A stretch of 64,000 nt of DNA, taken from positions 1-64,000 of the IMG/VR virus record IMGVR_UViG_3300009551_000005; one strand, 5' to 3'. This document shows, one piece after another, positions 4,816 through 63,784 of this stretch (positions are counted from its first letter, which is position 1; the number at the start of each line of letters is the position of its first letter). The DNA is from a virus. Below the pieces are notes generated by a model. That model was not told the origin of the DNA. It did not search any database and saw nothing but the letters and a program-made list of their open reading frames with translations. The position numbers and the translations under genes were made by a program.

Positions 4816-4839
4816 CCGTCGGTGATCGATCACCGACGG
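4816..4839. repeat. 24-bp perfect palindrome, copy 1
   Basis: CCGTCGGTGATCGATCACCGACGG (extends to 28 bp, 4814-4841), right after the terL stop and abutting GCGGCAT. Confidence 0.97.
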
Positions 4840-4855
4840 CGGCATGCCGGTGGTC

Positions 4856-5155
4856 ATGAAACCCACCATTCGCCCCGAAGACGTCCTCGCAGTCAGTGAC
4901 TCCTATCTCATCGCGGTGCCCGCCGCGCAGGTTCAAGCCTTCCGCGAGCTCGCGCGCGTCCACGCGGAGCTCGATGCGACGGACAAGCGCCTCTGCAACG
5001 AGTCCGAGGCGCTCTCGAAGGCCATTCGTGACCTCCTCGCCGGTGACGCAGACGTGACCATCGGACAGCTCCGTGAACTGGCCGCTGTTGTGGATCGCCT
5101 ACTTGTTCAACGCGGAGCTCTCGCACCGCGTTTACGACATCCGGCGCATGGCTGA
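4856..5155 (+). CDS. hypothetical protein
   Basis: ORF; ATG 4856 chosen because it lies 10 nt after GCGGCAT. Confidence 0.55.
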   Translation: MKPTIRPEDVLAVSDSYLIAVPAAQVQAFRELARVHAELDATDKRLCNESEALSKAIRDLLAGDADVTIGQLRELAAVVDRLLVQRGALAPRLRHPAHG

Positions 5156-5480
5156 CGACCTGCGCGGACGCGGAGAGATCGCCGCGGCGCTGGCCACCGA
5201 GAAGGTCCTCGCGCACCTGAAGGCGGCGGAGGCGCTCCAGAAAGAGCTCGAGGACGTCTGGCACGCGGTGGAGTGGCATCGCTCTGGCGACTGGAGCGCG
5301 GAGGCAGTCATCAAGGCGTGCCGTGAGCACGAGGCGAAGCACAAGCCCGCGCGCGAGGAGTGGGTGGCGATGGCCGTCGTCATCAGCCTCGAGGAAGTCT
5401 CGCGCATGGCGCACGAGCAGCTTCTCAGAGCGATCAGCGGCATCGATCCAGACGCGAGCGGTTCGCCGCGCCGGAGCTGA
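5148..5480 (+). CDS. hypothetical protein
   Basis: ORF with DVWHAVEWHRSGD segment. Confidence 0.55.
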   Translation: MADDLRGRGEIAAALATEKVLAHLKAAEALQKELEDVWHAVEWHRSGDWSAEAVIKACREHEAKHKPAREEWVAMAVVISLEEVSRMAHEQLLRAISGIDPDASGSPRRS

Positions 5481-5543
5481 GTCCCGGCCGCGGACGGGTA
5501 CTTGGGATCGCCGTCGGGAGGTTCGACTCCTCCCCGGCGGACC
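5460..5543 (+). ncRNA. tRNA-like structured element
   Basis: T-arm GGGAGG-TTCGACT-CCTCCC, closing stem GGTTCGCCG/CGGCGGACC, two further stems; anticodon arm non-canonical. Confidence 0.5.
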
Positions 5544-5568
5544 GCTCGCCTTCATCAGGAGGCAAGCG

Positions 5569-6198
5569 ATGGAATCATCGGCGAAGGACTTCAGCGAGAT
5601 CGCTGACGCGCTCAGAGACCAGGGTTGGACGCTGGAGAAGACGGCGGACAATCACATGAAGGCGTTCCCACCGGACAAGACGAAGAGCATGGTCGTCTTC
5701 AGCGCCAAGAGCGGAGACTTCCGAGCGATACGGAACACGATCGCGCAGCTCCGAAGGTCTGGTTTCCAGTGGCCGCCCAGAGACGGGTTCGTTCCGCCGG
5801 CTCCACTGCCGCTCATGCCCCATCCGCTCCGTCCGGCGAGCAACAGGAACATCGAGCGCGAAGTTGTCGCGGAGGTGACCGCGCAGGTGCTCGCGCCGCT
5901 GGAGAAGATCGCGGTGGAAGTCCTCGCCGGCAAGGCGACGAACGAGGAGCTCGACGAGTACGTGGAAGCGCATCCGCCCGCGCCTCCACCGTCGCAAGGC
6001 GACGCGCTCGAGGCGCTCTTTCGTGAGCTGAAGGACGCGAAGCAGAACCTCGTGCTCTGCGACGAGATGGTCGCTCACTGCGCGGAGGTCCTCGAGAAGG
6101 CTCGGTTGGACCACGAGGATGCGAAGAGCGAGAGCGTGCGCGCAGTGGAGCGCCTGCGGCAGGCCAAGGCGAAGTTCGATGCGGAGTTCGGCCGATGA
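5569..6198 (+). CDS. HicA-like (dsRBD-fold) domain protein with C-terminal coiled coil
   Basis: ALRDQGWTLEKTADNHMKAFPPD...SGDFRAIRNTIAQLRRSG pattern; AGGAGG RBS. Confidence 0.65.
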   Translation: MESSAKDFSEIADALRDQGWTLEKTADNHMKAFPPDKTKSMVVFSAKSGDFRAIRNTIAQLRRSGFQWPPRDGFVPPAPLPLMPHPLRPASNRNIEREVVAEVTAQVLAPLEKIAVEVLAGKATNEELDEYVEAHPPAPPPSQGDALEALFRELKDAKQNLVLCDEMVAHCAEVLEKARLDHEDAKSESVRAVERLRQAKAKFDAEFGR

Positions 6199-6677: not shown

Positions 6678-6928
6678 GCAAGAAGCCGGTCGACAAGGCC
6701 AAGAACATCGCGCGCATGCTCACGCAGCTCGTCGATGAGGACGGAGACACGGGTAAGAGCGCCTACCGCGGGACGGACGGCATCGCCGTCTCGCCGGCGA
6801 GCATGCGCTCCGACCAGGCGAAGCCCGAGCTGCCGCCGCGCTGGTCGTTCCTTCTCGAGGAGCGCGAGACGCAGCTCAACGAGCCGCCGCGGAAGTGGCG
6901 TGTCACCGTGGAGGAGGTCTTCGAATGA
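6674..6928 (+). CDS. hypothetical protein
   Basis: ATGA-coupled; GCGGCAT-N11-ATG. Confidence 0.6.
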   Translation: MSKKPVDKAKNIARMLTQLVDEDGDTGKSAYRGTDGIAVSPASMRSDQAKPELPPRWSFLLEERETQLNEPPRKWRVTVEEVFE

Positions 6929-7305
6929 GGCTCAGGCTCGTCATCAAGCAAGCTGCGCGCGAGCTCTCCATCGGTCCGGGAGACTTCTTGGAGCTCGCCG
7001 GACCGCACGACGACTGCATCGACGCGCGCGTGTGGCTCGCCACGCACGGTCGGTTCATGCGCGACCACGTCTTGCCCGAGCTCCTCGCGAACTTCGAGGG
7101 GAAGGACATTCGCAAGGAAGCGGTCCGCGCGGAGGTCTGCAAGTTCGTCGCGTGGCTCGTGAAGCGCTACGTGGGAGACGCCGCGTTCGTGACGTTCCCT
7201 ACGCCGGAGAAACCAGACAAGAAGTTCTTCGAGGAGCGCGAGCGTCAGCCAGTGCTCACGCCGTCCACGTGCCGGCCGGAGCCTCCTTTCACGCGCCGTC
7301 GGTGA
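6925..7305 (+). CDS. hypothetical protein
   Basis: GGAGG RBS; its TGA stop lies inside palindrome copy 2. Confidence 0.6.
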   Translation: MRLRLVIKQAARELSIGPGDFLELAGPHDDCIDARVWLATHGRFMRDHVLPELLANFEGKDIRKEAVRAEVCKFVAWLVKRYVGDAAFVTFPTPEKPDKKFFEERERQPVLTPSTCRPEPPFTRRR

Positions 7306-7319
7306 TCGATCACCGACGG
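7296..7319. repeat. 24-bp palindrome, copy 2
   Basis: Exact copy; TAGCCT follows at 7326. Confidence 0.97.
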
Positions 7320-7351
7320 TGGCGGTAGCCTCTACGCGAAGTGAGGAAGAC

Positions 7352-7921
7352 GTGAACGACCAGCCCAAGCCCATGCCCGAGCGCCCGACGTTCCACGAGA
7401 TCTACATGGAGCTCGCGAAGCTCATGTCGCGCCGCTCCACGTGCTCACGCCTTCAGGTGGGCTGCGCGATCGTGTCCCAGGACTTCCGGCACGTCCTCGC
7501 GGTCGGCTACAACGGCGGAGCGTCAGGCCAGAGCAACGACTGCACGCCGTGTGGGACGTGCAGCGGGACGAAGCACTACAACGTCGACGTCTTCAATCCG
7601 GCGACGAGCCTCTTCGAAAGGACGCTGAAGGAGTGCCCGACGTGCCACGGCACGGGCTCGCCGCCGGGGCAGTGTGGTCATCTCCACGCGGAGGACAACG
7701 CGTGCATCAACTGCCATGCGCCGCGGTCCGAGCCCAAGATCGTCTTCACGACCGACTTGCCGTGTGACCAGTGCGCGAAGCGCCTCGTGAATCTCGGGGG
7801 AGTCGTGCGCCTGGTCTACGACCGGCCGTACAGGCTCACCGCAGGTCTCGACGTCTTGCGCGACGCTGGGATCATGGCCGCGCAGTACCTCTCGGACTTG
7901 GAGATCTCGTGGCGCTCGTGA
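7352..7921 (+). CDS. dCMP deaminase (ComEB/DCTD family) with Zn-finger insertion
   Basis: RSTCSRLQVGC, GYNG, HAEDN and PCDQC motifs. Confidence 0.88.
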   Translation: MNDQPKPMPERPTFHEIYMELAKLMSRRSTCSRLQVGCAIVSQDFRHVLAVGYNGGASGQSNDCTPCGTCSGTKHYNVDVFNPATSLFERTLKECPTCHGTGSPPGQCGHLHAEDNACINCHAPRSEPKIVFTTDLPCDQCAKRLVNLGGVVRLVYDRPYRLTAGLDVLRDAGIMAAQYLSDLEISWRS

Positions 7922-8175
7922 ACGTCACCACGCTCCGTGAGGTCCTCGAGCGCGAGCCCGCGGACCTCCGCGCTCAGCGCCTGGCGAAGCTCATCATCGC
8001 GGGCAAGCGCGCAGCCGCGCACATGGGGCAAGCGCGTGAAGCTGTCGGTCGGGCGGCACAGCACACGGTGAAGGGGAGCGGCTGCGCCGCGTCGACGAGT
8101 CACTCTGGCGCCGCCAATCACTTCGGGATCGCGGCGGGCTACGTGCGTGAGCTCATGGAGCTGCTCGATGGCTAA
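7918..8175 (+). CDS. hypothetical protein
   Basis: GTGA-coupled ORF. Confidence 0.5.
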   Translation: MNVTTLREVLEREPADLRAQRLAKLIIAGKRAAAHMGQAREAVGRAAQHTVKGSGCAASTSHSGAANHFGIAAGYVRELMELLDG

Positions 8176-8542: not shown

Positions 8543-8886
8543 GCAAGTTCCTCGATCATGACCCGGACAAGATTGAGTTCATCGAGCTCGATGGCCGCGC
8601 GTTCGAAGCTGCGCGCAAAGCGTATGAGGAGCTCCGTCAGCACTACGAGAAAGAGCTTCACGAGATCTCCAAGCACTTGGTGATCAGCATCCCGCCGCAG
8701 TGCCAGGGCTCTCATGCGGCGCTCGCCGTCATGTACGGAATCCGCTACCCGTCTTACTGGCATGAGCCTCGAGGGCTGGGCGACGAAGGAGAGCGGCGGC
8801 ACGAAGAGGAAGGCTCTTCGCCGGCTGGAGCGTCTCCCGACGAGCGAGACGGGCAGGGGCGCGGCGGTTCCATTCCCTCACGCTGA
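8539..8886 (+). CDS. hypothetical protein
   Basis: GTGA-coupled; the 3' part overlaps the next gene, so the true end is uncertain. Confidence 0.45.
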   Translation: MSKFLDHDPDKIEFIELDGRAFEAARKAYEELRQHYEKELHEISKHLVISIPPQCQGSHAALAVMYGIRYPSYWHEPRGLGDEGERRHEEEGSSPAGASPDERDGQGRGGSIPSR

Positions 8887-9223
8887 GCGCCTCTGGCGCG
8901 CGGTCACCACGGAGGCGGAGCGGAAGAAGCTCATCGAGGATGCGCCCATCGAGGACGTGGAGCTCGACAAGCTGCACGCCACGCAGCACTCCGTCGTCCG
9001 CTCCAACGTGGAGCGGTACATCAAGGATCCCGGCGCGAAGCCATCGGCCATGGGGCCGAGCAACAGGCACGCGCGGCACGGCGGCAAGGTGGACTTCCCG
9101 ATCGTGTTCGTCGTCGACGGGCAGTGGCTCATCTACGACGGTCACCACCGCCTCACGGCGCACAAGCTCCAGGGCGATGAGTTCGCGCGAGCGCGCGTGG
9201 TGAGGCTCTCCGAAGCGGCATGA
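8762..9223 (+). CDS. ParB/Sulfiredoxin N-terminal-domain protein
   Basis: VELDKLHATQ...PIVFVVDGQWLIYDGHHRLTA motif. Confidence 0.8.
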   Translation: MSLEGWATKESGGTKRKALRRLERLPTSETGRGAAVPFPHAERLWRAVTTEAERKKLIEDAPIEDVELDKLHATQHSVVRSNVERYIKDPGAKPSAMGPSNRHARHGGKVDFPIVFVVDGQWLIYDGHHRLTAHKLQGDEFARARVVRLSEAA

Positions 9224-10988: not shown

Positions 10989-11564
10989 ATGGCCAACAAG
11001 AAGCGCTCCGACAAGACCAACAAGGCGGAGTTCATCCGCCGCCACGTCGATAAGTCACCCAAGGAAGTTGTCGCCCTCGGCAAGGGGATGAACCTCAAGT
11101 TCACCGAGCGCTACGTGCGCAACGTGCGCGACAAGATGTCCAAGAACCTGGACAAGGTGCTGGCGCAGGCCAAGAAGCCGCTGCCGCTCAAGCTGAAGAC
11201 CACGGGCTACTTGGGCGAGAAGACGCGCGCGCAGCGCCCCCGCAACCCGATCCTCGCGAAGGCGGCGAAAGCGGTTTCCAAGCGCCTCGACGAGATGTTC
11301 TGGGAGGTCGCGGCGGAGCGGATCGAACGCATCATGCAGAGCTCTTTCATGCCCAAGCTCGCGACCGTGGAGGTCGAACGCCGTCTCGTGGAGCTGGCGG
11401 TGGAGATCGGGCTCACGCGCGCCCAGCAACTCCTCCGGCAGGCCGCGGAGTTCGACGTCGTGATGTCCTCCCGTGCGGAGCACCCCGATTACGAGGAGCT
11501 TCTCGAGCGGATGGACCTCTACGACGCCGTTCTGACGGTTCACGGGAGTGCGTCCGTCCACTGA
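10989..11564 (+). CDS. basic putative DNA-binding protein
   Basis: KAEFIR...PKEVVA...YVRNVR and ELAVEIGLTRAQQLL; GCGGCAT-N9-ATG. Confidence 0.6.
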   Translation: MANKKRSDKTNKAEFIRRHVDKSPKEVVALGKGMNLKFTERYVRNVRDKMSKNLDKVLAQAKKPLPLKLKTTGYLGEKTRAQRPRNPILAKAAKAVSKRLDEMFWEVAAERIERIMQSSFMPKLATVEVERRLVELAVEIGLTRAQQLLRQAAEFDVVMSSRAEHPDYEELLERMDLYDAVLTVHGSASVH

Positions 11565-11622: not shown

Positions 11623-12099
11623 ATGAGCCTCCGCATCGCCCTCCTCGCTCTCTTCCTCGTCGCCTGCTCGGGCGCGGGTGTCTCGTTCTCCCAAGACCAA
11701 CAGCCCGACGCGCCCACCCCGGACACCGGAGCTCCGCCGCCGGACGCGTTTACGGGCCATCCTGACGCTGGCGCGGGCCAAGATTCGGGACGCGTTGCCG
11801 ACGCCTCTCCGCCTCCCCCTGATGCCGTCGGTGATCGATCACCGACGGTGGACGCGGAGAGCCCGGAAACCGGAGACCCGGGGCAGGACGCCGGCGCGGA
11901 CGCGCCCGGTGAGGCGGAGGCCGGTCCGCCACCCACGTGCACGAGCGGGTGGGGCTACCAGTGCGCCGCGTGGGACATCAGGAACCCGGCGGCCACGGTG
12001 CCGTCTGAGGAGGGCTTCACGAGCGACTGCGCGCCCGAGTGGCTTCCCGATGCCGGCGCGGGCTGCATGCAGATCCCTGGCTACTGGTGCTGCCCGTGA
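11623..12099 (+). CDS. lipoprotein with DAG-rich linker and Cys-rich C-terminus
   Basis: MSLRIALLALFLVAC lipobox; contains palindrome copy 3 in frame. Confidence 0.75.
   Translation: MSLRIALLALFLVACSGAGVSFSQDQQPDAPTPDTGAPPPDAFTGHPDAGAGQDSGRVADASPPPPDAVGDRSPTVDAESPETGDPGQDAGADAPGEAEAGPPPTCTSGWGYQCAAWDIRNPAATVPSEEGFTSDCAPEWLPDAGAGCMQIPGYWCCP
11825..11848. repeat. 24-bp palindrome, copy 3 (intragenic)
   Basis: Exact copy, read as AVGDRSPT. Confidence 0.97.
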
Positions 12100-16963: not shown

Positions 16964-17320
16964 ATGACGTACACCGCGAATTACGTGAGCGCCCCGCCCA
17001 GCTTCAAGCCGAGTGAGGTCCGCATCCTCAGGTTCCCCTTCGTCGGAACGTTCAACCGCGCAGAGCGTGAGACCGCGGCCGCGGTTCTCGTCGTTGCGTG
17101 CCAGAAGATCGACGCGTGGGCAGCGTTCACGCTTCCCGAGCTCGCCGATGTCCTCGAGGAGCTCCCCAAAGACCACGTGCTCATCGACGCTCTGAACAAC
17201 CCGTTCACCACGCCAGACTTCGAAGACCTCGTCGCCGCAGGCTTCGCGGAGAAGACGGAGACAGGAGCTTATGGCTTCACGCAGCAGGGGTTCGAGCGGC
17301 TCGCGAGGTGGGCTCCGTGA
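16964..17320 (+). CDS. hypothetical (winged-helix-like) protein
   Basis: GCGGCAT-N10-ATG; C-terminal LVAAGFAEK..GAYGFTQQG. Confidence 0.6.
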   Translation: MTYTANYVSAPPSFKPSEVRILRFPFVGTFNRAERETAAAVLVVACQKIDAWAAFTLPELADVLEELPKDHVLIDALNNPFTTPDFEDLVAAGFAEKTETGAYGFTQQGFERLARWAP

Positions 17321-17976
17321 GCACGTTCAACGTCATCAGCGCCGATCCTCCGTGGCCGTTCGGGGACAAGCTTCCGGGCAAGAAGCGCGGAGCCGCGAAG
17401 CACTACCCGCCCATGCCCGTCGAGGCCATCAAGCAGATGGTCTGCGGTCCGAATCAGAGGGGTGCGCGGTTCTGCAACGTGCGCGTCCTGTCCAAGCGGG
17501 AGTTCAGACAGGAGCCTACGAGGCGGTTTCTTGCTGACGATGCGCTCCTCTTCCTCTGGCGTGTCGCTGCCATGCAGGAGGAGGCGTTGGCGGTGGCGCG
17601 CGCGTGGGGCTTCGAGCCGAAGTCCGAGCTCACTTGGGTGAAGCTCAAGAAGGGCACGGAGATCTCTCGTATCCAGCTCGAGACCGATGGTGACCTGGTC
17701 ACTGTCCTCCCTCCGCTCCACTTCGGCATGGGCCGGTACGCGCGCCAGTGCCACGAGTCGTGTCTCGTTGCGACGCGCGGGAAGGGGCGCGAGCTCATCG
17801 TGGATCACGGCGTGCGCTCGACGTTCTTCGCGCCGGTGCAGGACCACTCACGGAAGCCGGCCGAGTTCTACGAGACCGTGGAGAGGCTTGTTGGACCTGG
17901 TGCGAGGAAGCTGGAGCTCTTCGCGCGATCGCAGCGAAGCGGGTGGACGTGCACCGGAGAGGAGTCGGGCGAATGA
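17317..17976 (+). CDS. MT-A70 family N6-adenine methyltransferase
   Basis: ADPPW, LFLW, AWGF, GMGRYARQCHE, HSRKP and LELFAR motifs. Confidence 0.9.
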   Translation: MSTFNVISADPPWPFGDKLPGKKRGAAKHYPPMPVEAIKQMVCGPNQRGARFCNVRVLSKREFRQEPTRRFLADDALLFLWRVAAMQEEALAVARAWGFEPKSELTWVKLKKGTEISRIQLETDGDLVTVLPPLHFGMGRYARQCHESCLVATRGKGRELIVDHGVRSTFFAPVQDHSRKPAEFYETVERLVGPGARKLELFARSQRSGWTCTGEESGE

Positions 17977-18802: not shown

Positions 18803-19311
18803 GGTTTCAGCAGGTATTCAGGCGCTCCAAGACCGTCACCACGAACCCGGCGCTCGGCGGTGACCACGCGCCCGACAACACCACCGGGAGACCCGGAAAC
18901 GGCGCGGCGACGAGCTCCAACGGGAATCTCAACAACTGGGACAACGTCCTCAACGCGCCGTTCGCCAATTCGAGCGGATGGCCGGTGCAGCGCATCGCCG
19001 TCGCGGTCCGTTTCGATCCGACGACGACAGGCACCGCGACGCTCACTGCCAACGGCTACATCTACGAGGAGCTCACGGGCACGTGGCACCTCATGAACAG
19101 CAGCCCGATCACGCTCACCGCCAACCAGCTCGCGTTCTTCGACGTGCCGGCTATCCCGCCGGCCATCCAGACGTCGCAGTCGGGGCAGATGGGCGCGCCG
19201 TCAGCGGGCAGCATCGCGTTCATGCTGGTCCTCACCGACACCGGTGGGGCCACCGCGAGCGGAAACGTCACCGTGGCCATGGCGCCCGACACCACGAGCA
19301 ACCCGCTGTGA
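18799..19311 (+). CDS. putative virion protein
   Basis: T/N/G-rich beta-type composition. Confidence 0.6.
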   Translation: MRFQQVFRRSKTVTTNPALGGDHAPDNTTGRPGNGAATSSNGNLNNWDNVLNAPFANSSGWPVQRIAVAVRFDPTTTGTATLTANGYIYEELTGTWHLMNSSPITLTANQLAFFDVPAIPPAIQTSQSGQMGAPSAGSIAFMLVLTDTGGATASGNVTVAMAPDTTSNPL

Positions 19312-19625
19312 GCCTCAGGAGCAAGGTCGCAGAGATGTTCAGGCGCGTCGGCAACGCCGCGCACACGCTCGCCGAGAGGATCTCGCCCTCGATGCAGTGG
19401 ATCGAAGACGAGCCCGAAAGGCCGGCGGACCCCGCATCGCTCGGGGAGCTCGCGCCCATCGTGGAGCTCTCTCCCAAGGCGCGTGAGATGGTCGAGGCGG
19501 GTCTTCACCCGCCTCCCCGCCCCAAGCCCGCCGTCGGTGATCGATCACCGACGGCGACCCCTGAACCCCCGGTGAGCTTCCCCAAGCCCGCTGCCGGCGC
19601 TCGCGTGCGTTCCTGGCGCGGGTAG
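19308..19625 (+). CDS. hypothetical protein
   Basis: GTGA-coupled; contains palindrome copy 4 in frame. Confidence 0.55.
   Translation: MSLRSKVAEMFRRVGNAAHTLAERISPSMQWIEDEPERPADPASLGELAPIVELSPKAREMVEAGLHPPPRPKPAVGDRSPTATPEPPVSFPKPAAGARVRSWRG
19531..19554. repeat. 24-bp palindrome, copy 4 (intragenic)
   Basis: Exact copy (28-bp extension), 80 bp upstream of the portal start. Confidence 0.97.
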
Positions 19626-29873: not shown

Positions 29874-29897
29874 CCGTCGGTGATCGATCACCGACGG
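29874..29897. repeat. 24-bp palindrome, copy 5
   Basis: Exact copy followed by TGG-TAGCCT-N7-ATG. Confidence 0.97.
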
Positions 29898-29913
29898 TGG
29901 TAGCCTCCCGGGC

Positions 29914-30078
29914 ATGGGCAAGAAGCCTTACAACCTCACGCCTCCCCCGCCCGCGCCCAAGAACGCACCCCAGGCGACTCCGCCCCCCAACGCGGCACCT
30001 CCGAAGGACCGCGACAAGGGGCAGGAGCTCCCCTGGCCTCCTGCGACTCCTCCCGACCACAAGCCGATGAAGGTGTAG
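29914..30078 (+). CDS. 54-aa Pro-rich protein (not in the ORF track)
   Basis: MGKKPYNLTPPPPAPK...HKPMKV*; leaderless motif. Confidence 0.6.
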   Translation: MGKKPYNLTPPPPAPKNAPQATPPPNAAPPKDRDKGQELPWPPATPPDHKPMKV

Positions 30079-30082
30079 GCGC

Positions 30083-34224: not shown

Positions 34225-35160
34225 ATGTCGGAAGAGAACAAGGACAAGGGCACGCCGGCGGCTGCCGGTGCAGAGGGCGCGAAGGGCACGGAGGCCAAGC
34301 CGCCGAAGGAAGAAGCCGTCGCGAAGCCGGAAGCCAAGGGCGATGCGAAGCCGGAAGCCAAGGGCGAGAAGACGGCTGGCAAGTCCAAGTCGGAGGAAGT
34401 CCAGGCCACCGCGAAGCGCTACAAGCTCGAGGATGATGACGACGAGATCCCGGAAGATGCGGACCTTCTCGACCTCACGCCGCGCGGTCTGAAGAATCGC
34501 CTCACGCGTGCCAAGAACAGCGTTCTCAAGGAGCGCTTCGGCACGACCGACGTCGACTCCATCGTCGCGAAGCTGAAGAAGCTCGAGGAGTTCGAGGAGA
34601 AGGAAGCGAAGGCCAAGAAGGAGAAGATGGACAAGGAGGAGCGCCTCGCTGCCGAGAAGGCAGAAGCCGAGGACCGCGCCGCCAAGGCCGAAGCACGCGC
34701 GAAGGCAGTCGAGGAGGAGCGCGCCGTCGAGAAGGAAGGCACGCGGCTGAAGGGTCTCTGCGAGGACCAGATCAAGCCGAAGTATTGGCGCCACGTGAAG
34801 GCGGACCTCGCCGAGTGGATCCTCAACGGCGAAGATGGTGAGCCGCGCTCCCCCAAGGAGATCCGCGCGCTCAAGGACAAGGACATCAAGAAGTGGCTCG
34901 GGAACTACTTGAAGGACAACCCCGAGTTCTCCGCCGGCGCGGCCGCTGACGCAGCGAAGGCCGCCAAGGAGGAGAAGGACAAGAAGAAGGGTCTGAACAC
35001 CGGCGCGGACAACGATGACGAGAAGACGGGCACCGACGGTGACACCGACCCGTCCGTCGACCCGGCCACCGGCAAGACGCTGAAGCCCGGACGTCCCAAC
35101 TCGATGACGAAGGCGGAGGCGCAAGCCTTCCTCCGCAAGAAGGGCATCGAGCTCCCCTAG
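34225..35160 (+). CDS. capsid scaffolding protein
   Basis: K/E/A-rich coiled coil preceding the major capsid gene. Confidence 0.75.
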   Translation: MSEENKDKGTPAAAGAEGAKGTEAKPPKEEAVAKPEAKGDAKPEAKGEKTAGKSKSEEVQATAKRYKLEDDDDEIPEDADLLDLTPRGLKNRLTRAKNSVLKERFGTTDVDSIVAKLKKLEEFEEKEAKAKKEKMDKEERLAAEKAEAEDRAAKAEARAKAVEEERAVEKEGTRLKGLCEDQIKPKYWRHVKADLAEWILNGEDGEPRSPKEIRALKDKDIKKWLGNYLKDNPEFSAGAAADAAKAAKEEKDKKKGLNTGADNDDEKTGTDGDTDPSVDPATGKTLKPGRPNSMTKAEAQAFLRKKGIELP

Positions 35161-35675
35161 CCCGTCTTGTTGCGCGCGAGCCTCTTCTGCTCGCGCTTCT
35201 CGTCCGGCGCGATGGCGAGGAGGATTGTCGTGTGGTCCCTCCCCACGAGCCTCCCGATCTGAGGGTAGCTCAAACCCTTCGCCCGAAGTCTCTTCCAAAA
35301 CTCGACGCGCGCCTCGACGAGCTCCGTCGTCCGCACCCTGCCGAACAGCTCTCGCTCATTCACGAAGTGCTTGGTGCAGACGTCTTCGATGTCAGCGCCG
35401 AACCCGCGGTGACGAGCTGCCTGCGAGAGCCCTTCCTCCACGTTCAGGCGTGCCGCGCGCGCGGTTCCCCACGCGACCCGCGCGCGCATCTTGCCGCCGT
35501 CGAACGTGAGCTTGGCCTCCGCGACGGTCTTGCCGTCGGACACCTGGACTTCATCACCCGGCACGACGTGGTTCACGAGCATCGTCGCGCGTGACCCTTC
35601 GGAGTCGAGGAGCACGAGCCCGTCTTCTTGGCGTTCGAAGTCGACGAAGATGATGACCGGACCCTTCAGGACCAT
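35157..35675 (-). CDS. protein with DnaA C-terminal-type HTH domain
   Basis: EAR...GLSYPQIGRLVGRDHTTILLA; GCGGCAT-N9-ATG. Confidence 0.75.
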   Translation of the reverse strand: MVLKGPVIIFVDFERQEDGLVLLDSEGSRATMLVNHVVPGDEVQVSDGKTVAEAKLTFDGGKMRARVAWGTARAARLNVEEGLSQAARHRGFGADIEDVCTKHFVNERELFGRVRTTELVEARVEFWKRLRAKGLSYPQIGRLVGRDHTTILLAIAPDEKREQKRLARNKTG

Positions 35676-37468: not shown

Positions 37469-37485
37469 GGCGTCGTTCGATGCCG

Positions 37486-37509
37486 CCGTCGGTGATCGAT
37501 CACAGACGG
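37486..37509. repeat. 24-bp palindrome, copy 6 (one mismatch)
   Basis: CCGTCGGTGATCGATCACAGACGG between divergent motifs. Confidence 0.95.
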
Positions 37510-37541
37510 TGCTAGCCTCCACCGGAGACGGAGGAATCCCC

Positions 37542-45627: not shown

Positions 45628-46350
45628 ATGGAAGGCATCAAGAGGAGCTTCGGTCCCAAGATCGACAGCAGCGAGCCGTCGGCGGAGGAACGTGCGGCAG
45701 TGGGCGCTGTGGGCGGTCATCCCGCGTTTCGCGACGCACCCCCGCCTGGCGTGCCCAAGGTGAAGACGCGCGCTCCTGAGCAGGAGATCGACGAGGAGGA
45801 CGAATCGGAGCTCGTCGAAGAGGCAGGAGCTCCGCCGGACGACGACAGCCCGGGCAACGCCGCGCAGGACGACGATGACGATCCCAAGCCGAAGCTCAAC
45901 GCGGCGGCTGATGACGTCCCCTACCCGGACTTCGAGGAAGAGGACAACTGGCCGGCGTGGGCGGTCCTTCCCAAGCAGGTGAAGCCGAAGCCCGGCACGC
46001 GCATGGAGTGCTTCAAGTTCGAGGCGGAGCACACCGAGGACCAGCAGGAGCACTGGTGCATCGTCTGGCCGCTCAAGGACAAGGAGCAGGCCAACGCGTA
46101 CAAGAACACCGCCGGCACCGCGGAGCGCGCCATCGCGGAGCTTGCGAAGATGGGTCTGCGCGTCGTCGACGGGCTGCCCGCGCGCTGGGACGTCACGCCG
46201 GCGACGTCGGGCAGTATCATGGGTTTCTGGAACGTCATCGGCGCGAAGGGGCGCCAGATGCTCCAGGAGTGGTACGCGAAGGCTCACGCGTTCTCCAAGG
46301 AGGAGCGGAAGGTTTTTTTCGCGCGCTGCTACGGTTCCAAGAGGGCGTAG
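45628..46350 (+). CDS. tail assembly chaperone (G-like)
   Basis: Between tube and tape measure; slippery site near its end. Confidence 0.7.
   Translation: MEGIKRSFGPKIDSSEPSAEERAAVGAVGGHPAFRDAPPPGVPKVKTRAPEQEIDEEDESELVEEAGAPPDDDSPGNAAQDDDDDPKPKLNAAADDVPYPDFEEEDNWPAWAVLPKQVKPKPGTRMECFKFEAEHTEDQQEHWCIVWPLKDKEQANAYKNTAGTAERAIAELAKMGLRVVDGLPARWDVTPATSGSIMGFWNVIGAKGRQMLQEWYAKAHAFSKEERKVFFARCYGSKRA
46314..46320 (+). other. -1 programmed frameshift site (T TTT TTC) giving a GT-like extension to 46613
   Basis: T7 run in a GC-rich gene; the -1 frame is open and coding-like to 46613. Confidence 0.75.
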
Positions 46351-46705
46351 CAGCGGGGGACGACATCGAGGACGCGCTGGAGGCGCTGGGCGGGGACAGG
46401 ATCTTGCTCGCCTACGCCTTCGCGCAGTCCTGCGACCCGGACGACATGCTGAGGAAGATGAAGCGTCAGCACATCTACCTGTGTCGGTACATGCACGTGT
46501 CGCTCGAGCGCGTCGAGGACATGGATGCCGAGGAGATCCGCGACTACATGGAGGAGCTCTCCGAGGTCATCAAGCAGGAGACTCCCACGCCGGCGGGGCC
46601 CGGCTCGCAGTGAGCTCCCAGCCCGCCGAAGGGGTGCACCTCTCCGGCGGGCCAGTTCCGGCATCCGCCCCGTGGGCGGTCTGACCGACAGCTCTCCTGA
46701 TGCCG

Positions 46706-46729
46706 CCGTCGGTGATCGATCACCGACTG
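46706..46729. repeat. 24-bp palindrome, copy 7 (one mismatch)
   Basis: ...CACCGACTG, then TGG-TAGCGT-N6-ATG of the tape measure gene. Confidence 0.95.
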
Positions 46730-46744
46730 TGGTAGCGTCACCAC

Positions 46745-52630: not shown

Positions 52631-52654
52631 CCGTCGGTGATCGATCACCGACGG
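52631..52654. repeat. 24-bp palindrome, copy 8
   Basis: Exact copy, then TGC-TAGCGT-N7-ATG. Confidence 0.97.
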
Positions 52655-52670
52655 TGCTAGCGTCACCGGC

Positions 52671-58138: not shown

Positions 58139-58865
58139 ACTTCGTCGCAACTGGCGGAGGAAGAAGCATCGGGATGATCCCGATGGGACGCTCGAGCGTC
58201 TTCGTGATGAGGTGCATGACCTGCGCTCCACCACCGCGGACGATGTGCCGGATGGACGACCTCGCGTTCCTCAAGACATCAGCCACGCGGCAGAGTCCCT
58301 CCCACGCCTCATCTGAATATGGAATCACCGCGACATCGTTCCAATCGCCGTGGTACTCGCGCGCACCATCGCCGACTGCTCGAAGCCTGCGCATCTCCTC
58401 AGCGTCTTTCTCCCAGCCCTTCAAGCTTTGCTCGAAGTCCTTGGAGTGTGAACGCGTGAACCACCGGTCTTGCCGCTTGTTGCTGCCGTCGTACCTCCTG
58501 TTGACCTTCGTGATCCCGGCGGTGTCGTTTCCGCGGACCAACGCTCGCTCGAGCCGTTCGAACGACAGCTTCACGTGGACTTCGACGTCGTTCATCTTTT
58601 CCCTGTCGAGGGGTTCGAACGCGTCGGGTTTCTCCCACTTGGAAAGGTCCGAACCGACCGTGATGACTGGCTCCCACACGTATCGGATCACCTTCTCGAG
58701 CTCCGCCTGAGCCTTTTCCTTCACCTCGTTGATGGTGTCCGCGCGCAACTCTTCGTCGCCGACCTTCGCGAAGAAGTTTTTCCTGTCACGGTCGAAGAGA
58801 ATGTCGACCCATCCGTGTTTCGTTTGGAGCTTGTCGACGACGTAGGGTTTGAGTGCGCGGCCCAT
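58122..58865 (-). CDS. hypothetical protein
   Basis: TAATG-coupled to the upstream minus-strand gene; GAGGAG RBS. Confidence 0.65.
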   Translation of the reverse strand: MGRALKPYVVDKLQTKHGWVDILFDRDRKNFFAKVGDEELRADTINEVKEKAQAELEKVIRYVWEPVITVGSDLSKWEKPDAFEPLDREKMNDVEVHVKLSFERLERALVRGNDTAGITKVNRRYDGSNKRQDRWFTRSHSKDFEQSLKGWEKDAEEMRRLRAVGDGAREYHGDWNDVAVIPYSDEAWEGLCRVADVLRNARSSIRHIVRGGGAQVMHLITKTLERPIGIIPMLLPPPVATKSRKQR

Positions 58866-59431
58866 TAGCGACTCCTCGTGAAGCACGCTTCGCGGAACAT
58901 CGCGAGAAGGACTGCGGCGGTGGATTGGGCGAGCGGTTCGAGCTTCTCCGTCGGCTTCTTCAACCCGGGGTGCTGATAGGTCCAAGGTTCGGCAGTGACC
59001 ATGAGAGTCAGAACCGGCGAAGTGACCGGGTTCACCCAATGCCATCCGTTCGGTTCCGTCATCTCGTAGCTCGAACCCTCGGGCAGACGGAGCACCATCA
59101 CAGTTTCCGCCGGGTCGCTGGAGTCACGTGAAGTGCCAACGCCCATCTCGTAGACGCCCGAAGCCTGGATGATCTTCACTGCGCTCGGCCAGGGGTGCGG
59201 GTGGTAGAGCGGCGTGCCACACGGATGGATGCGGTGGAGGTAGAGGCGAAGCGAACCGTGTTTCGGATGCTTCACGCTTCGCCAGAGCCGTTCGACGCGC
59301 GGCTTGTCGTAGTCCACGTCCAGCGACGTCCAGTCCGAGGGATCGTCGCAGATGAACGGGAGCGCGCTTTCGAAGTCTTCAAGCGCTGCGAGGAGCTCCC
59401 CTTTCCTGTATGTCCTTTTCTCTTCAGCCAT
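58865..59431 (-). CDS. cupin-like protein
   Basis: RLYLHRI...HPHPW...E...WH.V...LTLMVT; GCGGCAT-N9-ATG. Confidence 0.65.
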   Translation of the reverse strand: MAEEKRTYRKGELLAALEDFESALPFICDDPSDWTSLDVDYDKPRVERLWRSVKHPKHGSLRLYLHRIHPCGTPLYHPHPWPSAVKIIQASGVYEMGVGTSRDSSDPAETVMVLRLPEGSSYEMTEPNGWHWVNPVTSPVLTLMVTAEPWTYQHPGLKKPTEKLEPLAQSTAAVLLAMFREACFTRSR

Positions 59432-59446
59432 GGCGCCGCGATGCCG

Positions 59447-59470
59447 CCGTCGGTGATCGATCACCGACGG
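59447..59470. repeat. 24-bp palindrome, copy 9
   Basis: Exact copy between divergent motifs. Confidence 0.97.
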
Positions 59471-59489
59471 CGCTGCTAGCCTCCTGCGC

Positions 59490-61397
59490 ATGGCCAACGG
59501 CGTCGGCGCTCTCACTCCCCAGGACCTCCTCGCTGCGTGGCAGTCGGGGGCCGATGAGGGCTACACGCAGCCGCTCATCGCTGCCGGTGACGGCCAAGGC
59601 CTCGAGGTCTTCTCGCAGGCGGCCGTGCAGCTCGCGCGCGTCAGCCAGTGCTCGGACAACACGTTCGGCTCGTTCTACATCCTGCCCTGGAGCGGTCAGA
59701 CCGCGCCGTCGGCAGGGGGAGCGCAGCAGGCGACGGTGACCATCACCGTCACGAGAAACCTCAGGCTCGACGTTCCGCTCGTTCTCCCCGCCGGCGCGTT
59801 CGTCGAGGAAGTGGCGTTCGACTGGGGTCCCACCGGCGCTGTGCCGGTGCAGACCGGGCGACGTTTCCAGCTCCTTTCGAACGTCGTGTTCTTCAGCGGT
59901 GACAGCGGCCCTTACAACGTGATCGCGCAGGCTGAGAAACCGGGGTGGGGCTACAACAACCCGCAACCCGGCTCCATCTCACTCGTCGACCAGCCGGGCA
60001 GCGGCTACGAGAACACGCTCGCATCGGTGACGTTTGACCCGGGCTCCGGTCCACCGACTCCGCGCTCGCTCTCCGCGCTCCTCATCTCCGCGCCGCAGCC
60101 GGACATGTTCGTGCTCGAACACGTGGGCCAGTACGTCGCGTTCACCGCCGGCGCGAACGTCGGGCAGGTGGCCAGGATCTCCGCGGTACAGCCCCCGGTG
60201 CCGCCGACATCGGGAACCACCGCGGTCCTCGACTCCATTCTCTGTTTCGAGTGCACGACGTTCTCTGGCCCCTTCTTCGCCGGCGAGCTCGCGACCTTCA
60301 AGAGCGGCGGCGTGACGGTGGGTTCGGGCACTGTGCTCGCCAGCGCAGTGAACCCCGCAAGCGGAAACCTCCGCACCGTCGTGCATCTCTCCTTCGACAG
60401 CGGCTTTGCCGCCGGTGTCACCTGCACCGGCGTATCCTCCGCGCTCTCGGCGACGCTGACGCGTTTCCTCTACCGCCCGAGCTTCACCGCAGAGGCGCCG
60501 TCGGGTGGCGCGGGAGGAGCCTCGTGGAAGGTCCTCGACTGGGCGGCAGATCTCGGGGTCGAGGTGACCAACGCCGCGCAGCCCTCCGGCGGAAGGCTCG
60601 GAGTGCTCGACGAGCTCGGGAGAGAGCGCGGAGTGCCGCGCGCGGGAGGCGAAGGAGACATCCCCTATGCGAAGCGCGTCCACGCTGCGCCGGACAAGGG
60701 GAGCACGAACGCGCTGAAGCGCGCGTTGAACAAGCTCCTCGGCCCGGGCTCGCAGTGGTGCCTTCGTGAGGTGGGCACCGCGCTCCTCCCCGGCATGTTC
60801 TACGACGGCGGGCTCGAGACTCCTTCGTCGACGCCCGGGCGTGGAGAGAACGACTGCTACGACGTCGACACTGTGAGCTGGAGCGGCGGCGTCTACGTCG
60901 GCACGTTCAAGTTTCAGGAGCCGTGTGTCTACGTTGACGCGAGCGGAAACCAGCGGATCTTCGGGTACGTCGGATCGACCGTGGGAGGGCTCACGATGAT
61001 CCGCCGGCAGACGACGCAGGGCGCGTTTCCCGCAACGTCTTCGCCGACCGACAGGGTCAAAGGTCTCATCTCCGGCGCGACCTATCAGCCGCTCGCGAAC
61101 CCGGTTCAGAGTCCGAGTTTCACCGCGCGGCGCTTCCGCATGGTCATGAACTACGCGGAGTTTCGCGCGTTCTTTCTCGTGGGCCTGCCGCCATCGAACG
61201 CCGGCGAGTTCGGTTTCGCGTACGACTCGGGCACCTCCAACGCGTATGACCTGACAGGCACCGTCTACCCGACCTTCTACGACGGCTACCCCGTGGACTT
61301 CGCGGAGGAGTGCATGGCCGTATGGAACACGATGAACGCCACGAAGGATGGCGGCGTCGGGTTCGACCTGTACCTGGAACCCGGCCCCTGCTCCTGA
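59490..61397 (+). CDS. baseplate wedge/fibre-attachment protein
   Basis: LDELGRERGVPR..GEGD..Y.KR motif. Confidence 0.7.
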   Translation: MANGVGALTPQDLLAAWQSGADEGYTQPLIAAGDGQGLEVFSQAAVQLARVSQCSDNTFGSFYILPWSGQTAPSAGGAQQATVTITVTRNLRLDVPLVLPAGAFVEEVAFDWGPTGAVPVQTGRRFQLLSNVVFFSGDSGPYNVIAQAEKPGWGYNNPQPGSISLVDQPGSGYENTLASVTFDPGSGPPTPRSLSALLISAPQPDMFVLEHVGQYVAFTAGANVGQVARISAVQPPVPPTSGTTAVLDSILCFECTTFSGPFFAGELATFKSGGVTVGSGTVLASAVNPASGNLRTVVHLSFDSGFAAGVTCTGVSSALSATLTRFLYRPSFTAEAPSGGAGGASWKVLDWAADLGVEVTNAAQPSGGRLGVLDELGRERGVPRAGGEGDIPYAKRVHAAPDKGSTNALKRALNKLLGPGSQWCLREVGTALLPGMFYDGGLETPSSTPGRGENDCYDVDTVSWSGGVYVGTFKFQEPCVYVDASGNQRIFGYVGSTVGGLTMIRRQTTQGAFPATSSPTDRVKGLISGATYQPLANPVQSPSFTARRFRMVMNYAEFRAFFLVGLPPSNAGEFGFAYDSGTSNAYDLTGTVYPTFYDGYPVDFAEECMAVWNTMNATKDGGVGFDLYLEPGPCS

Positions 61398-61409
61398 TAC
61401 GTCTACCGC

Positions 61410-63125
61410 ATGCCCGGTGGCGGAAAAGCGATCGTCATTCAGACGCAGGAACGGGCGGTCTCGCCCGACATCAACAGGGCCCAGATCTTTGGCCAGTGGC
61501 AACTCGCCGAGGTCCTCCGTGGCCTCATGGACGTCACCACGACCGATGACTTCGACGCCGGCGGCAACGCTGCGAGCTCGCTCTCGATGGGCACGCCGAT
61601 GCGCGCGGAGATCTTCTCCGGCCTCGAAGTTCGTCCGCAGACAGGTGCGGGAGTCCTCGACCTTCAGGTGACGCCCGGCGTGGCGACGTGCGTTGCGCCC
61701 GACGGTGACACCGACGCTTCGGTGAACAAGGTCGTCTCCGATCCCGGCATCAATGTGAACGGGCTGCTCCAGATGACGGCCAACTCGTCGGGTTCGACGA
61801 GGATCGATGTCATCGAGGTGCAGTTCGCGCAGCTCGTCCTCACGACCGACAACCGCGACATCTTCAACCCGGCGACGGGTCTCTTCACCGCGACCAACGT
61901 CACGAAGAGCACGCAGGGCTATCTCACCGCGCTCTCCGGCACGCTCGTCTCCGGCAACGGACCGCCATGCATCCGCGTGCGTGCGGGCACGCCCGGCGGC
62001 GGGCTTCCTGCGAACCAGAGCGGCTGGACCCCCATCGCCGTCGCCTTCGTGCCCAACGGCGCGGTGCAGTGCGATGACATGGACTTCTGGGACGTGCGCC
62101 CGCTGGTCTCTGACCGGCAGTTCAACCTGACCGACACGAGCTCGATGTCGTACATGAAGCGCTTCATTGGGAGCGCGAACGACCAGGACTCCGGCGGTCA
62201 CACGTACGTGACGGGCATCGCAGAAGCGACGTTTGGCGCGCGGCGCGTCGGTGGAAACCTGCTCACTGGATGTCCCAGCGTCGACACGCTGCCGACGGCG
62301 AACTTCGACGCGCAGCTCGCGCGCGACCAAGACGGCGGGTCGCTCCCGTCTTCAGGCCTCTGGTACCTCTACCTGCTCTTTCCGGGAAACCTTCCGCGGT
62401 GGGCGCGCTACACGCGCAGCGCTCCGCGCGTCCCGCGTTCGCCGCGCGGGATTCCGGTCGTGTCGGGCACCGCACCGCAGCACGTGACCGGCAAGCCGTC
62501 TTCTGCGATCAACCTCCCCGCCGCATGCGGGCTCGGGGGTAGCACTCAGAACGGCGTCTGCATCATGTCCAGCGTCACGTCCTCGAGCACGCCTCACGGC
62601 GGCTCGGCGGATGGGCAGAGATTCTTTCCGTCGATCGTCCAGAGCTTCGGCGCGGCGACGAGCTCTCTCGACACGTGCACGTGGAACCTTGTCGATGGGA
62701 CCACGCATCCGCCCAACGCCCGGTCGATCCTCGTGTCGCTCACGATGACCATCAGGTTCACGGGCACGGGCGCGGCGTACACGCACACGGGCGTGGGCGG
62801 CACGCCTCCCAATCCGGTCCAGATGGGAACCGTGGCGACGGCTCCAGGCGCTCCCGGCGCAATCAACCAGATCGCGAACGTGTTCCCGAGCTCGAAGATG
62901 ATCTCGATCATCGCCACGGCCGGCTTCTACGACGTCCAGGTGGTGACCGAGACGCTCGAGATCCCGCTCTTCCCGGTCTATCCGGCGTCGGTAGCGAACC
63001 AGACTCGGAAGATCCAGTGGAAGCCGAACTTCAACACCAACTTCCTCCTGATCTCAGGCTCGAGCTCCCCATCCCTTCAGGGGACTCCTCAGATGCAAGT
63101 CGTTGGCTGGACGATGCACGACTGA
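61410..63125 (+). CDS. tail fibre/baseplate protein
   Basis: LQVTPGVA, NSSGSTRIDVIE; position. Confidence 0.65.
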   Translation: MPGGGKAIVIQTQERAVSPDINRAQIFGQWQLAEVLRGLMDVTTTDDFDAGGNAASSLSMGTPMRAEIFSGLEVRPQTGAGVLDLQVTPGVATCVAPDGDTDASVNKVVSDPGINVNGLLQMTANSSGSTRIDVIEVQFAQLVLTTDNRDIFNPATGLFTATNVTKSTQGYLTALSGTLVSGNGPPCIRVRAGTPGGGLPANQSGWTPIAVAFVPNGAVQCDDMDFWDVRPLVSDRQFNLTDTSSMSYMKRFIGSANDQDSGGHTYVTGIAEATFGARRVGGNLLTGCPSVDTLPTANFDAQLARDQDGGSLPSSGLWYLYLLFPGNLPRWARYTRSAPRVPRSPRGIPVVSGTAPQHVTGKPSSAINLPAACGLGGSTQNGVCIMSSVTSSSTPHGGSADGQRFFPSIVQSFGAATSSLDTCTWNLVDGTTHPPNARSILVSLTMTIRFTGTGAAYTHTGVGGTPPNPVQMGTVATAPGAPGAINQIANVFPSSKMISIIATAGFYDVQVVTETLEIPLFPVYPASVANQTRKIQWKPNFNTNFLLISGSSSPSLQGTPQMQVVGWTMHD

Positions 63126-63150
63126 TAGCTCGGCTGTTACATTCCGGGAC

Positions 63151-63639
63151 ATGGCTACTCCCGAGGAGATTGGACAGGAGCTCGTAAAGCACGGCATCGC
63201 CGCGGTAGTTGCCGGCGTGACCGCGCTCTTCGTCTCCGGCAAGTCGCTCCTCAAGCGTCACAAGGAGCACGGCGAAACCATCGCCAAGCACACGCAGTCC
63301 CTCGGGGACGTGGACGTGAAGCTCGTCGCGCTCGGACAGGCTGTCGCGACGATCACCGCGAACGTCGACGCCAAGGTCGCAGCGCTTCGCAAAGACGTCG
63401 ACTCCGATCTCGACGTCTTCGACGAGAAGCTCAAGAAGCATTGCGAGAAGATCGACGTCGACGTGCGCGCATTGCACGACAAGATCCACGGCGTGCGAGA
63501 GAGCTCCCACGACTTGGCAGACCGCGCGGAGGTCGCGCGTGTCATGACGGAGGTGACGGAGAGATGCCTGGAGATCGCGAAAGACACAGCGGAGCTCAGG
63601 GGGATGGTCGAGATGATGGTTTCCGTGCGGAAGCGGTGA
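63151..63639 (+). CDS. membrane-anchored coiled-coil protein (holin/antiholin-like?)
   Basis: TACATT-N7-ATG; single TM segment. Confidence 0.55.
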   Translation: MATPEEIGQELVKHGIAAVVAGVTALFVSGKSLLKRHKEHGETIAKHTQSLGDVDVKLVALGQAVATITANVDAKVAALRKDVDSDLDVFDEKLKKHCEKIDVDVRALHDKIHGVRESSHDLADRAEVARVMTEVTERCLEIAKDTAELRGMVEMMVSVRKR

Positions 63640-63760
63640 CCGAGCCCGACTCGCTCCAGATGGCGAAGCGGAAGTTCGACCTCGTGACTCGAGACATCAA
63701 GGAGTCGCAGCGCCTCGCGAAGACGCGTCTGCGCGCCATCCTCGCGTCCACGGGCACGGA

Positions 63761-63784
63761 CCGTCGGTGATCGATCACCGACGG
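63761..63784. repeat. 24-bp palindrome, copy 10
   Basis: Exact copy; supplies the TGA of small ORF 63636..63770; TAGGCT follows at 63791. Confidence 0.97.

Follow-up and report, generated by a model that had tools for sequence, protein, structure and literature searches.

Dispersed, lineage-private palindromes in a clade of uncultured phages and their possible recognition by a ParB/Noc-like protein

Noc binds palindromes that are scattered around the chromosome, and multi-copy repeats near gene starts are known from several groups of actinophages: the conserved inverted repeats of phiC31, the start-associated sequences of Cluster K and the 17-bp palindromes of Cluster O. These actinophage repeats, which differ in sequence between phage groups, have been proposed or shown to be regulatory; to our knowledge, none of them has been linked to a ParB-type protein or to palindromes that are private to each member of a clade. 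On the IncP-1 plasmid RK2, the ParB-family protein KorB acts as a global regulator of transcription through about a dozen operators, the OB sites (PMC11790492; PMC5577506). The Cluster A mycobacteriophages carry stoperators, 20-30 copies per genome of one short, asymmetric site of 13-14 bp that is oriented with transcription and bound by the monomeric immunity repressor of these temperate phages (gp71 in L5); binding blocks both initiation and elongation, and the specificities of site and protein co-evolve between related phages (PMC9283540; PMC6550527). Here, we analyze a 24-bp palindrome that is dispersed through the first 64 kb (hereafter the window) of the 100,493-bp IMG/VR virus record IMGVR_UViG_3300009551_000005, compare it with the repeats of related phages, and suggest a phage-encoded protein that may bind it.

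The 24-mer occurs ten times in the window, eight times perfectly and twice (at 37486 and 46706) with a single mismatch, and its two arms meet without a spacer. All ten coordinates, both imperfect copies and the absence of a loop had been recorded in an earlier examination of this DNA (the sequence-only reading), and all proved exact when the window was scanned again. With up to three mismatches allowed, the window still gives 10 matches, against 0.00 expected from 100 dinucleotide-preserving shuffles, and the whole genome gives 19; a decayed 20th copy, with a 3-nt deletion, is found at 76086. The gaps between successive copies range from 1.0 to 10.3 kb across the genome, with an average interval of roughly 5 kb, and their coefficient of variation is 0.48 as against 0.93 under random placement (P=0.0007, whole genome); hence the copies are evenly spread around the genome. 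When the ten window copies were aligned with 80 nt of flanking sequence, conservation ended at the palindrome, save for short motifs just downstream, and no target duplication was visible in the flanks.

Neither the viral contigs of IMG/VR nor 185,579 species genomes contain an exact match to the 24-mer, which within these collections is therefore not a repetitive extragenic palindromic (REP) sequence or a miniature inverted-repeat transposable element (MITE) of a host. Its 20-mer core gives five single matches on unrelated contigs. One of these, the 105-kb virus IMGVR_UViG_3300049811_000692 (G001), holds one 22/24 match (L011:1460-1570) that heads a cluster of repeated TCGGTG(A/T)T-type half-sites, resembling an iteron or operator array; the terminase query had no match in this virus. 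An assembly artefact is unlikely, since the flanks are unique, the clusters of the terminase and of the candidate binder described below are each present on two contigs of ~100.5 kb, and independent metagenomic relatives are organised alike. The centre of the palindrome holds two overlapping GATC sites. The avoidance of GATC (Dam) sites was considered and rejected, since the genome-wide count of 576, where 678 would be expected, does not amount to a depletion.

The terminase of this phage belongs to a family with many metagenomic relatives at 38-50% identity, many of them on contigs of 85-100 kb. A terminase-profile search recovered 80 viral loci, many of which carry a multi-copy perfect palindrome of their own, with a different sequence each time. 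A portal-based search for related loci found none, a polB-based locus scan was dominated by generic polB, and a scan with the 80059 family added few loci. Among 12 relatives that were fetched in full for comparison, 11 have a private palindrome of 20-24 bp in 12-34 copies, each with its own sequence (the centres include ATCGAT, CCCGGG, GGCGCC, CACGTG and CCGCGG), and the twelfth has an asymmetric repeat in its place. In the relatives L022, L036, L061 and L159, all of which encode the ParB-like protein described below, a perfect palindrome is replaced by asymmetric conserved repeats of 30-45 nt, composed of a short hairpin and a tail and present in a single orientation.

Although the sequences of these palindromes diverge, their positions are shared. 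In five genomes a site lies inside polB, at a relative position of ~0.9 (one of these genomes has two such copies), and a sixth genome has its site where polB ends; seven genomes have a site at the 5' end of the small gene that sbcD and sbcC flank; and others recur upstream of the helicase, terminase, portal and sigma genes and of several virion genes. In this phage and the 11 relatives taken together, 157 of 245 sites are at gene boundaries, a six-fold enrichment given that ~10% of the DNA is non-coding. The feature is clade-wide, conserved in position and divergent in sequence. The combination of conserved positions with divergent sequences rules out chance, assembly artefact and simple mobility, and identity within each genome together with divergence between genomes requires a phage-specific reader that recognises sequence.

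The geometry of the palindromes bears on whether this reader acts on DNA or on RNA. A hairpin leaves its central 4 nt free, whereas a homodimer on double-stranded DNA does not, and symmetry of the central 4 nt has a chance of 1/16 per motif. Among the ~25 different dyad motifs whose arms are 6 nt or longer, 22 have no spacer; this central symmetry favours a two-fold symmetric target in double-stranded DNA over an RNA stem. One relative has a motif with an asymmetric 7-nt spacer, whose copies are divided 6:5 between the two orientations. In this phage (G000), the five variant copies show no wobble or compensatory pattern, only one of the five being compatible with G-U pairing, and not one of the 19 copies has behind it a T-run of the kind that would supply the U-tract of an intrinsic, Rho-independent terminator. 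We are thus fairly confident that the 24-mers represent protein-binding sites on double-stranded DNA. That a dimeric phage protein binds them, coordinating expression and/or organising the genome, as the sequence-only reading had proposed, is the best-supported interpretation, and the comparative data have strengthened it.

The protein that may fill this role is encoded outside the window, at genome positions 75695-77128, just after a sigma-factor gene and just before polB. It is a 477-residue protein of the clade's core, with an N-terminal zinc ribbon containing four invariant cysteines, a disordered, low-complexity linker, a central domain and a beta-rich C-terminal domain; in this phage the decayed palindrome copy at 76086 falls within the linker. 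Residues ~205-347 were modelled with a predicted local distance difference test score (pLDDT) of ~90, and the 11 top structural rows for residues 220-347 of the model (VIA re-alignment) are all DNA-binding domains of ParB, Spo0J or Noc proteins, with Z scores of 6.8-8.8 and root-mean-square deviations of 2.5-3.3 A over 91-99 residues. The next rows are SopB, at Z 4.3, and unrelated chains at no more than 4.0. Foldseek likewise places ParB, Spo0J and Noc proteins first, with weak E-values, and the family has weak Pfam matches to HTH_ParB and DUF3102. In its model, the candidate thus has a helix-turn-helix (HTH) DNA-binding fold of the ParB/Noc type. None of 11 family members matched the ParB_N CTPase domain at E<=0.1, and the structural alignments span the DNA-binding domain alone. 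A sequence-profile search of the PDB returned only zinc-ribbon noise, a word-based homologue search with the DNA-binding domain returned only the query itself, and no ParA-type ATPase was seen among ~80 proteins scanned, which do not comprise every open reading frame (ORF).

Profile searches detected the candidate's family in all but one of the 12 fetched relatives, the exception being a sequence that breaks off at a contig end, and in 19 of 30 further relatives; at E<=1e-30 the family comprises at least 809 clusters (50% identity) among 1.84 billion representatives. Four distant relatives without the candidate also lack dispersed palindromes, an association that is confounded with phylogeny. 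In seven of 12 genomes, sites lie just upstream of the candidate gene or of the sigma operon. The four binders proposed by the sequence-only reading have little in their favour and were rejected. The minus-strand ORF 35157-35675 does encode a helix-turn-helix but is present in just 2 of 26 relatives, those at 10989-11564 and 16964-17320 have neither matches nor orthologues in the clade, and 8762-9223, with a weak ParBc_2 match, occurs in 6 of 12 relatives.

If the candidate reads the palindrome, the two might be expected to vary together. Palindromes were compared by the Hamming distance between their 10-nt half-sites; once the mean core-genome distance is controlled for, the candidate ranks first among 35 core families (partial Spearman 0.36), and of 2,169 windows of 20 residues scanned across the proteome the two best are both in the candidate. 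Across 19-20 genomes the covariation peaks over the helix-turn-helix and the C-terminal domain. In Mantel tests on 20 genomes the correlation was r=0.30 (p=0.003) for HTH residues 262-295 and r=0.40 (p=0.0005; partial r=0.27, p=0.002) for the C-terminal domain, and was not significant for the zinc ribbon (r=0.09). Variants of the recognition helix follow the outer bases of the half-site: in the four proteins with a Y-x-Y arrangement, all the half-sites end in CGT. Given the small sample, we regard this covariation as suggestive, not conclusive. On these grounds the odds are slightly better than even that the candidate at 75695-77128 is the ligand of the palindromes.

The surroundings of the palindromes suggest what such a ligand could do. 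Seven window copies lie 3 or 6 nt upstream of a TAGSST -10-like box, and in six of the seven the box is preceded by TGn, which gives it an extended -10 shape. At four of these boxes an ATG (29914, 46745, 52671, 59490) follows 6-7 nt past the TAGSST, a leaderless-type geometry; the other three are followed by a Shine-Dalgarno sequence and a start codon. About seven further TAGSST boxes (13784, 15246, 32506, 33284, 38558, 41508, 50590) have the same start geometry, with either a start codon 6-7 nt downstream or a Shine-Dalgarno sequence, and have no palindrome. As about half of the boxes do without it, the palindrome is an optional add-on rather than a part of the promoter, and the idea that it is an obligatory part of TAGSST promoters was rejected. 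A second motif, GCGGCAT(C)-N9-11-ATG, has ~33 copies in the genome, often directly after a stop codon (for example 10973, 12856, 13524 and 16947, and 35691, 40092, 41496 and 22740 on the minus strand). It abuts four window copies, at 4816 on the plus strand and at 37486, 46706 and 59447 on the minus strand, and in a fifth association outside the window lies 4 nt from copy 97192. The variants GCGGCATAA and GCGCCATAGT of this motif recur in relatives, both up- and downstream of their palindromes. GCGGCAT is probably a second class of promoter, possibly one for the phage sigma factor. The three palindromes at 37486, 46706 and 59447 are flanked by divergent promoter-like motifs (GCGGCAT and TAGSST). 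If the ATG is taken as the start of transcription, the palindrome would span about -16 to -42.

The sequence-only reading had listed the same seven boxes and four GCGGCAT contacts, with flanks otherwise unrelated, and all of this was recovered; its description of the palindromes as docked onto promoters applies to the seven copies with TAGSST and the four with GCGGCAT (three of them shared), but the remaining copies are in coding sequence. Across the genome, copies of this latter kind are mostly in the replication half, and the genes that contain them include polB, the gene of a 492-residue core protein and a RuvC-like gene. The intragenic copies share one reading frame, (A/T/P)VGDRSP(T/K), and fall near protein termini or within linkers. 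The third frame of the palindrome contains TGA, and the copies at 7296 and 63761 supply the stop codon of the upstream gene.

We put at about one in two the probability that a ParB/Noc-like phage protein docks on the palindromes and serves as a global operator or roadblock at the boundaries of transcription units. Under this reading, a dimer of the candidate protein would bind each palindrome, and where the site covers the upstream half of a promoter (-16 to -42) the bound protein would hinder RNA polymerase. The promoters affected would be a subset of those of the host-type extended -10 (TGnTAGSST) and GCGGCAT classes, including the three divergent pairs. At sites between or inside genes, including those of the replication half, the protein could act as an elongation roadblock or a boundary, and autoregulation would follow from the sites that, in 7 of 12 genomes, precede the gene or operon of the protein itself. 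The palindrome of each phage would then co-evolve with its candidate protein. For a role that is primarily transcriptional the odds are, in our estimate, slightly short of even. Repression or insulation is favoured over activation, because half of the similar promoters are free of sites and because in the relatives the distance from the palindrome to the -10 box varies from 2 to 41 nt.

These last two observations tell against any version of the operator reading that requires a fixed promoter architecture or an obligatory activator, and several others weigh against it more generally. The covariation is modest, with phylogeny only partly controlled (HTH partial r=0.15, p=0.05), and the best covariation window differs between data sets. 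In several genomes that encode the candidate, the repeats are asymmetric or consist of a hairpin and a tail, or a perfect palindrome is not detectable. Moreover, the palindrome folds as RNA into a stable hairpin (-17.2 kcal/mol, z=-4.6), the sites very often begin 0-5 nt past a stop codon, those of relatives end 0-3 nt upstream of a Shine-Dalgarno sequence, and in one relative with an imperfect palindrome there is an orientation bias of 25:6. Nearly all the genes being co-directional, such features would suit an RNA hairpin in long co-directional transcripts, acting as a factor-dependent terminator or attenuator, a processing site, a 5' or 3' stabiliser, or a translational operator for a phage RNA-binding protein. 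We nonetheless judge this improbable. A stem-loop leaves the symmetry through the centre of ~22 of 25 motifs unexplained, neither the pattern of variants nor the sequence after the copies is that of a conserved stem or intrinsic terminator, polB and other essential genes contain conserved copies, and the identity of copies within genomes and their divergence between genomes would call for a sequence-specific reader regardless.

The main rival, which we consider unlikely though less so than the hairpin, keeps the same pair of protein and palindrome and holds that it chiefly organises the genome, the promoter contacts being secondary. It could do so by centromere-like or Noc-like tethering, by condensing or bridging replicating DNA, by marking DNA for packaging, or by keeping the genome apart from those of the host or of co-infecting phages. 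The even spacing of sites around the whole genome, the many sites in coding sequence far from promoter-like motifs and the ParB/Noc DNA-binding fold of the candidate all speak for such a role, and the phage-private specificities recall plasmid incompatibility groups; but the candidate has no detectable ParB CTPase domain, the proteins scanned (a part of the total) included no ParA, the sites are enriched six-fold at gene boundaries, and the fixed 3 or 6 nt to the -10 boxes of this phage suggests a coupling to gene expression. A self-propagating or gene-converting repeat of little function, comparable to REP/RAYT elements or MITEs, is very unlikely. It would account for the many identical copies, for their tolerance in one frame within linkers and termini and for their concerted evolution within each genome, but not for over-regular spacing or for positions conserved among relatives with unrelated palindromes; copies are absent from 185,579 species genomes and from other viral contigs, the scanned proteins included neither a transposase nor an HUH protein, and a length of 24 bp without a visible target duplication in the flanks is atypical of a mobile element. 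Least likely of all, the palindromes would be parS-like loading sites for the ParB_N-like protein of the TET/JBP operon (89811-90563), licensing the thymidine hypermodification of the phage's own DNA. The weak ParB_N match does stand beside Tet_JBP, an amino-acid:DNA transferase (ADDT) and a P-loop kinase, but among the 12 relatives the ParB_N-like protein is present in four and Tet_JBP in three, as against dispersed palindromes in 11. As a general explanation this proposal was rejected, since the palindromes are conserved in relatives that lack the cluster.

The individual window copies lie in varied contexts. Copy 1 (4816-4839, perfect) starts 2 nt past the stop codon of the terminase (4813), and its last G opens a plus-strand GCGGCAT (4839-4845, class-II promoter-like) that is followed by ATG codons at 4844 and 4856 of ORF 4844-5155. 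Copy 2 (7296-7319, perfect) contains the TGA (7303-7305) that ends ORF 6925-7305; 6 nt beyond it is a TAGCCT -10-like box (7326-7331, plus strand), followed by a Shine-Dalgarno sequence and the GTG at 7352 of a dCMP deaminase gene. Copy 3 (11825-11848, perfect) lies among small, weakly scoring ORFs, with VGDRSPT in frame with a region of high G+C at third codon positions (GC3) downstream, and its gene context is ambiguous. Copy 4 (19531-19554, perfect) is in the 3' part of ORF 19308-19625, again in the frame VGDRSPT, with the portal gene (19635) 80 nt downstream. Copy 5 (29874-29897, perfect) is intergenic, 41 nt past an 882-residue gene that ends at 29832; a plus-strand TGG-TAGCCT extended -10-like box (29901-29906) lies 3 nt past the copy, and the ATG at 29914 is 7 nt downstream in leaderless geometry. 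From this ATG, a small Pro-rich ORF of ~55 residues (29914-30081) extends to just before the GTG of a 517-residue gene.

Copy 6 (37486-37509, one mismatch) is flanked by a leftward GCGGCAT-N11-ATG, whose GCGGCAT (37480-37486, minus strand) abuts it, and by a rightward TGC-TAGCCT box (37513-37518, plus strand) 3 nt beyond it, which is followed by GGAGG and an ATG at 37542 that is probably the true start. The intergenic copy 7 (46706-46729, one mismatch) abuts a minus-strand GCGGCAT (46700-46706) facing the minus-strand ORF 46329-46664; on its other side, a plus-strand TGG-TAGCGT box (46733-46738) 3 nt past the copy precedes by 6 nt the ATG at 46745 of a 645-residue core gene of the virion region. 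Copy 8 (52631-52654, perfect), also intergenic, is followed after 3 nt by a plus-strand TGC-TAGCGT box (52658-52663) and, 7 nt on, by the ATG at 52671 of a 320-residue core gene. Between divergent genes lies copy 9 (59447-59470, perfect): a GCGGCAT-N9-ATG abuts it (59441-59447, minus strand) ahead of the minus-strand gene 58865-59431, and a plus-strand TGC-TAGCCT box (59477-59482) 6 nt past the copy stands 7 nt before the ATG at 59490 of a 635-residue core gene. Copy 10 (63761-63784, perfect) contains the TGA (63768-63770) that ends ORF 63636-63770 and is followed after 6 nt by a plus-strand TGC-TAGGCT box (63791-63796), a Shine-Dalgarno-like sequence and an ATG at 63828.

The genome that carries these sites has a G+C content of 66% and a direct terminal repeat of 123 bp. 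With our own GC3-based gene calls, in which some start codons are uncertain, it has ~128 genes, 121 of them on the plus strand. They include virion and lysis genes (terminase, portal, MuF, Baseplate_J and an endolysin-like protein), genes of nucleotide metabolism and DNA modification (an MT-A70 methylase, dCMP deaminase, ThyX and a Tet_JBP/ADDT/kinase hypermodification cluster), genes of replication and repair (helicases, primase, two RecA-like proteins, PolB, UvrD and SbcCD) and, for transcription, a sigma-70 region-2 protein at 74988-75650. The MT-A70 family DNA methyltransferase gene is at 17308-17976 in the window. The hypermodification cluster, at 89811-93737, comprises the weakly matching ParB_N-like gene, Tet_JBP, ADDT, one further gene and a P-loop nucleotide kinase, with ThyX, a dGTP diphosphohydrolase and a NUDIX gene nearby; it looks like a thymidine hypermodification pathway, and only some relatives have it. 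The two RecA-like genes are at 74035-74991 and 82242-83450; one has a strong Pfam match to bacterial RecA and is without orthologues among the 12 relatives, and the other, UvsX-like, belongs to the core genes.

Most virion proteins have no PHROG match, a 20-kb segment has no megablast match among GenBank phages, and tblastn with the portal and terminase gave distant matches alone, at 23-31% identity; by these comparisons the phage appears to have no cultured relative. Integrase or repressor families were not detected among the scanned proteins, and one relative is labelled a provirus in IMG/VR. When genome contigs were scanned with the terminase profile, just two phage-sized contigs of metagenome-assembled genomes matched, and these indicated no host. 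The terminase homologues P0020, P0060, P0064, P0075 and P0110, of 900-985 residues, contain Hint/LAGLIDADG homing-endonuclease domains, which indicates inteins in several relatives.

If the pairing of protein and site is true, there would be a handle on how an almost unidirectional phage genome of 100 kb is divided into expression units. It would also mean that ParB-derived global regulators, known from RK2, operate in widespread soil and environmental phages without a cultured member. The clade would then hold a natural library of orthogonal protein-operator pairs, with dozens of 20-24-bp palindromes and their cognate ParB-type domains, which would be useful for the study of how ParB/Noc specificity evolves and as a source of parts for synthetic regulation. 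That each lineage keeps its site sequence so strictly to itself hints that related phages may be in conflict or incompatible. A full-text literature search found no description of the clade or of private palindromes within it.

Compared with the systems with which we began, the phage palindromes are closest in arrangement to the OB operators of KorB, for in both cases there are dispersed, identical palindromic sites, some near promoters and others far from them, and a DNA-binding protein of the ParB family (here a predicted one). KorB differs from the candidate in having the ParB CTPase/sliding-clamp domain and the partners KorA, TrbA and IncC, where the candidate has a zinc ribbon and no detectable CTPase, and the phage sites differ from OB in being 20-24 bp long, in being also intragenic and in having a different sequence in every relative. 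With stoperators they share the many dispersed copies of one short site, both intergenic and within coding sequence, and a specificity that diverges between relatives; in contrast to the stoperators, they are perfect 24-bp palindromes, their candidate ligand is ParB/Noc-like, and no integrase was found among the scanned proteins. The pairs Noc/NBS (NBS being the Noc-binding sites) and ParB/parS (7ol9, 6y93, 6s6h, 4umk) have the same DNA-binding fold as that modelled for the candidate, and their targets are likewise palindromes with a GC-rich core flanked by A/T, NBS being scattered over the chromosome; some of the relatives' palindromes even share the CACGTG or CCCGGG centres of parS and NBS. 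Unlike Noc and ParB, the candidate has no CTP-binding N-domain and no membrane-targeting helix, it belongs to a phage genome, and no ParA accompanies it among the scanned proteins. The phage system thus appears to share the logic of KorB, of stoperators and of Noc while departing from each in one defining feature. We tentatively propose, at rather less than even odds, that it is an undescribed "private address" system of a large uncultured clade of ~85-105-kb phages, by which a phage would mark, insulate and co-regulate its own transcription units, or organise its own DNA, apart from that of the host or of co-infecting relatives, and in which a ParB/Noc derivative with a zinc ribbon in place of the CTPase domain would co-evolve with 12-34 evenly spread copies of a perfect 20-24-bp palindrome unique to each lineage.

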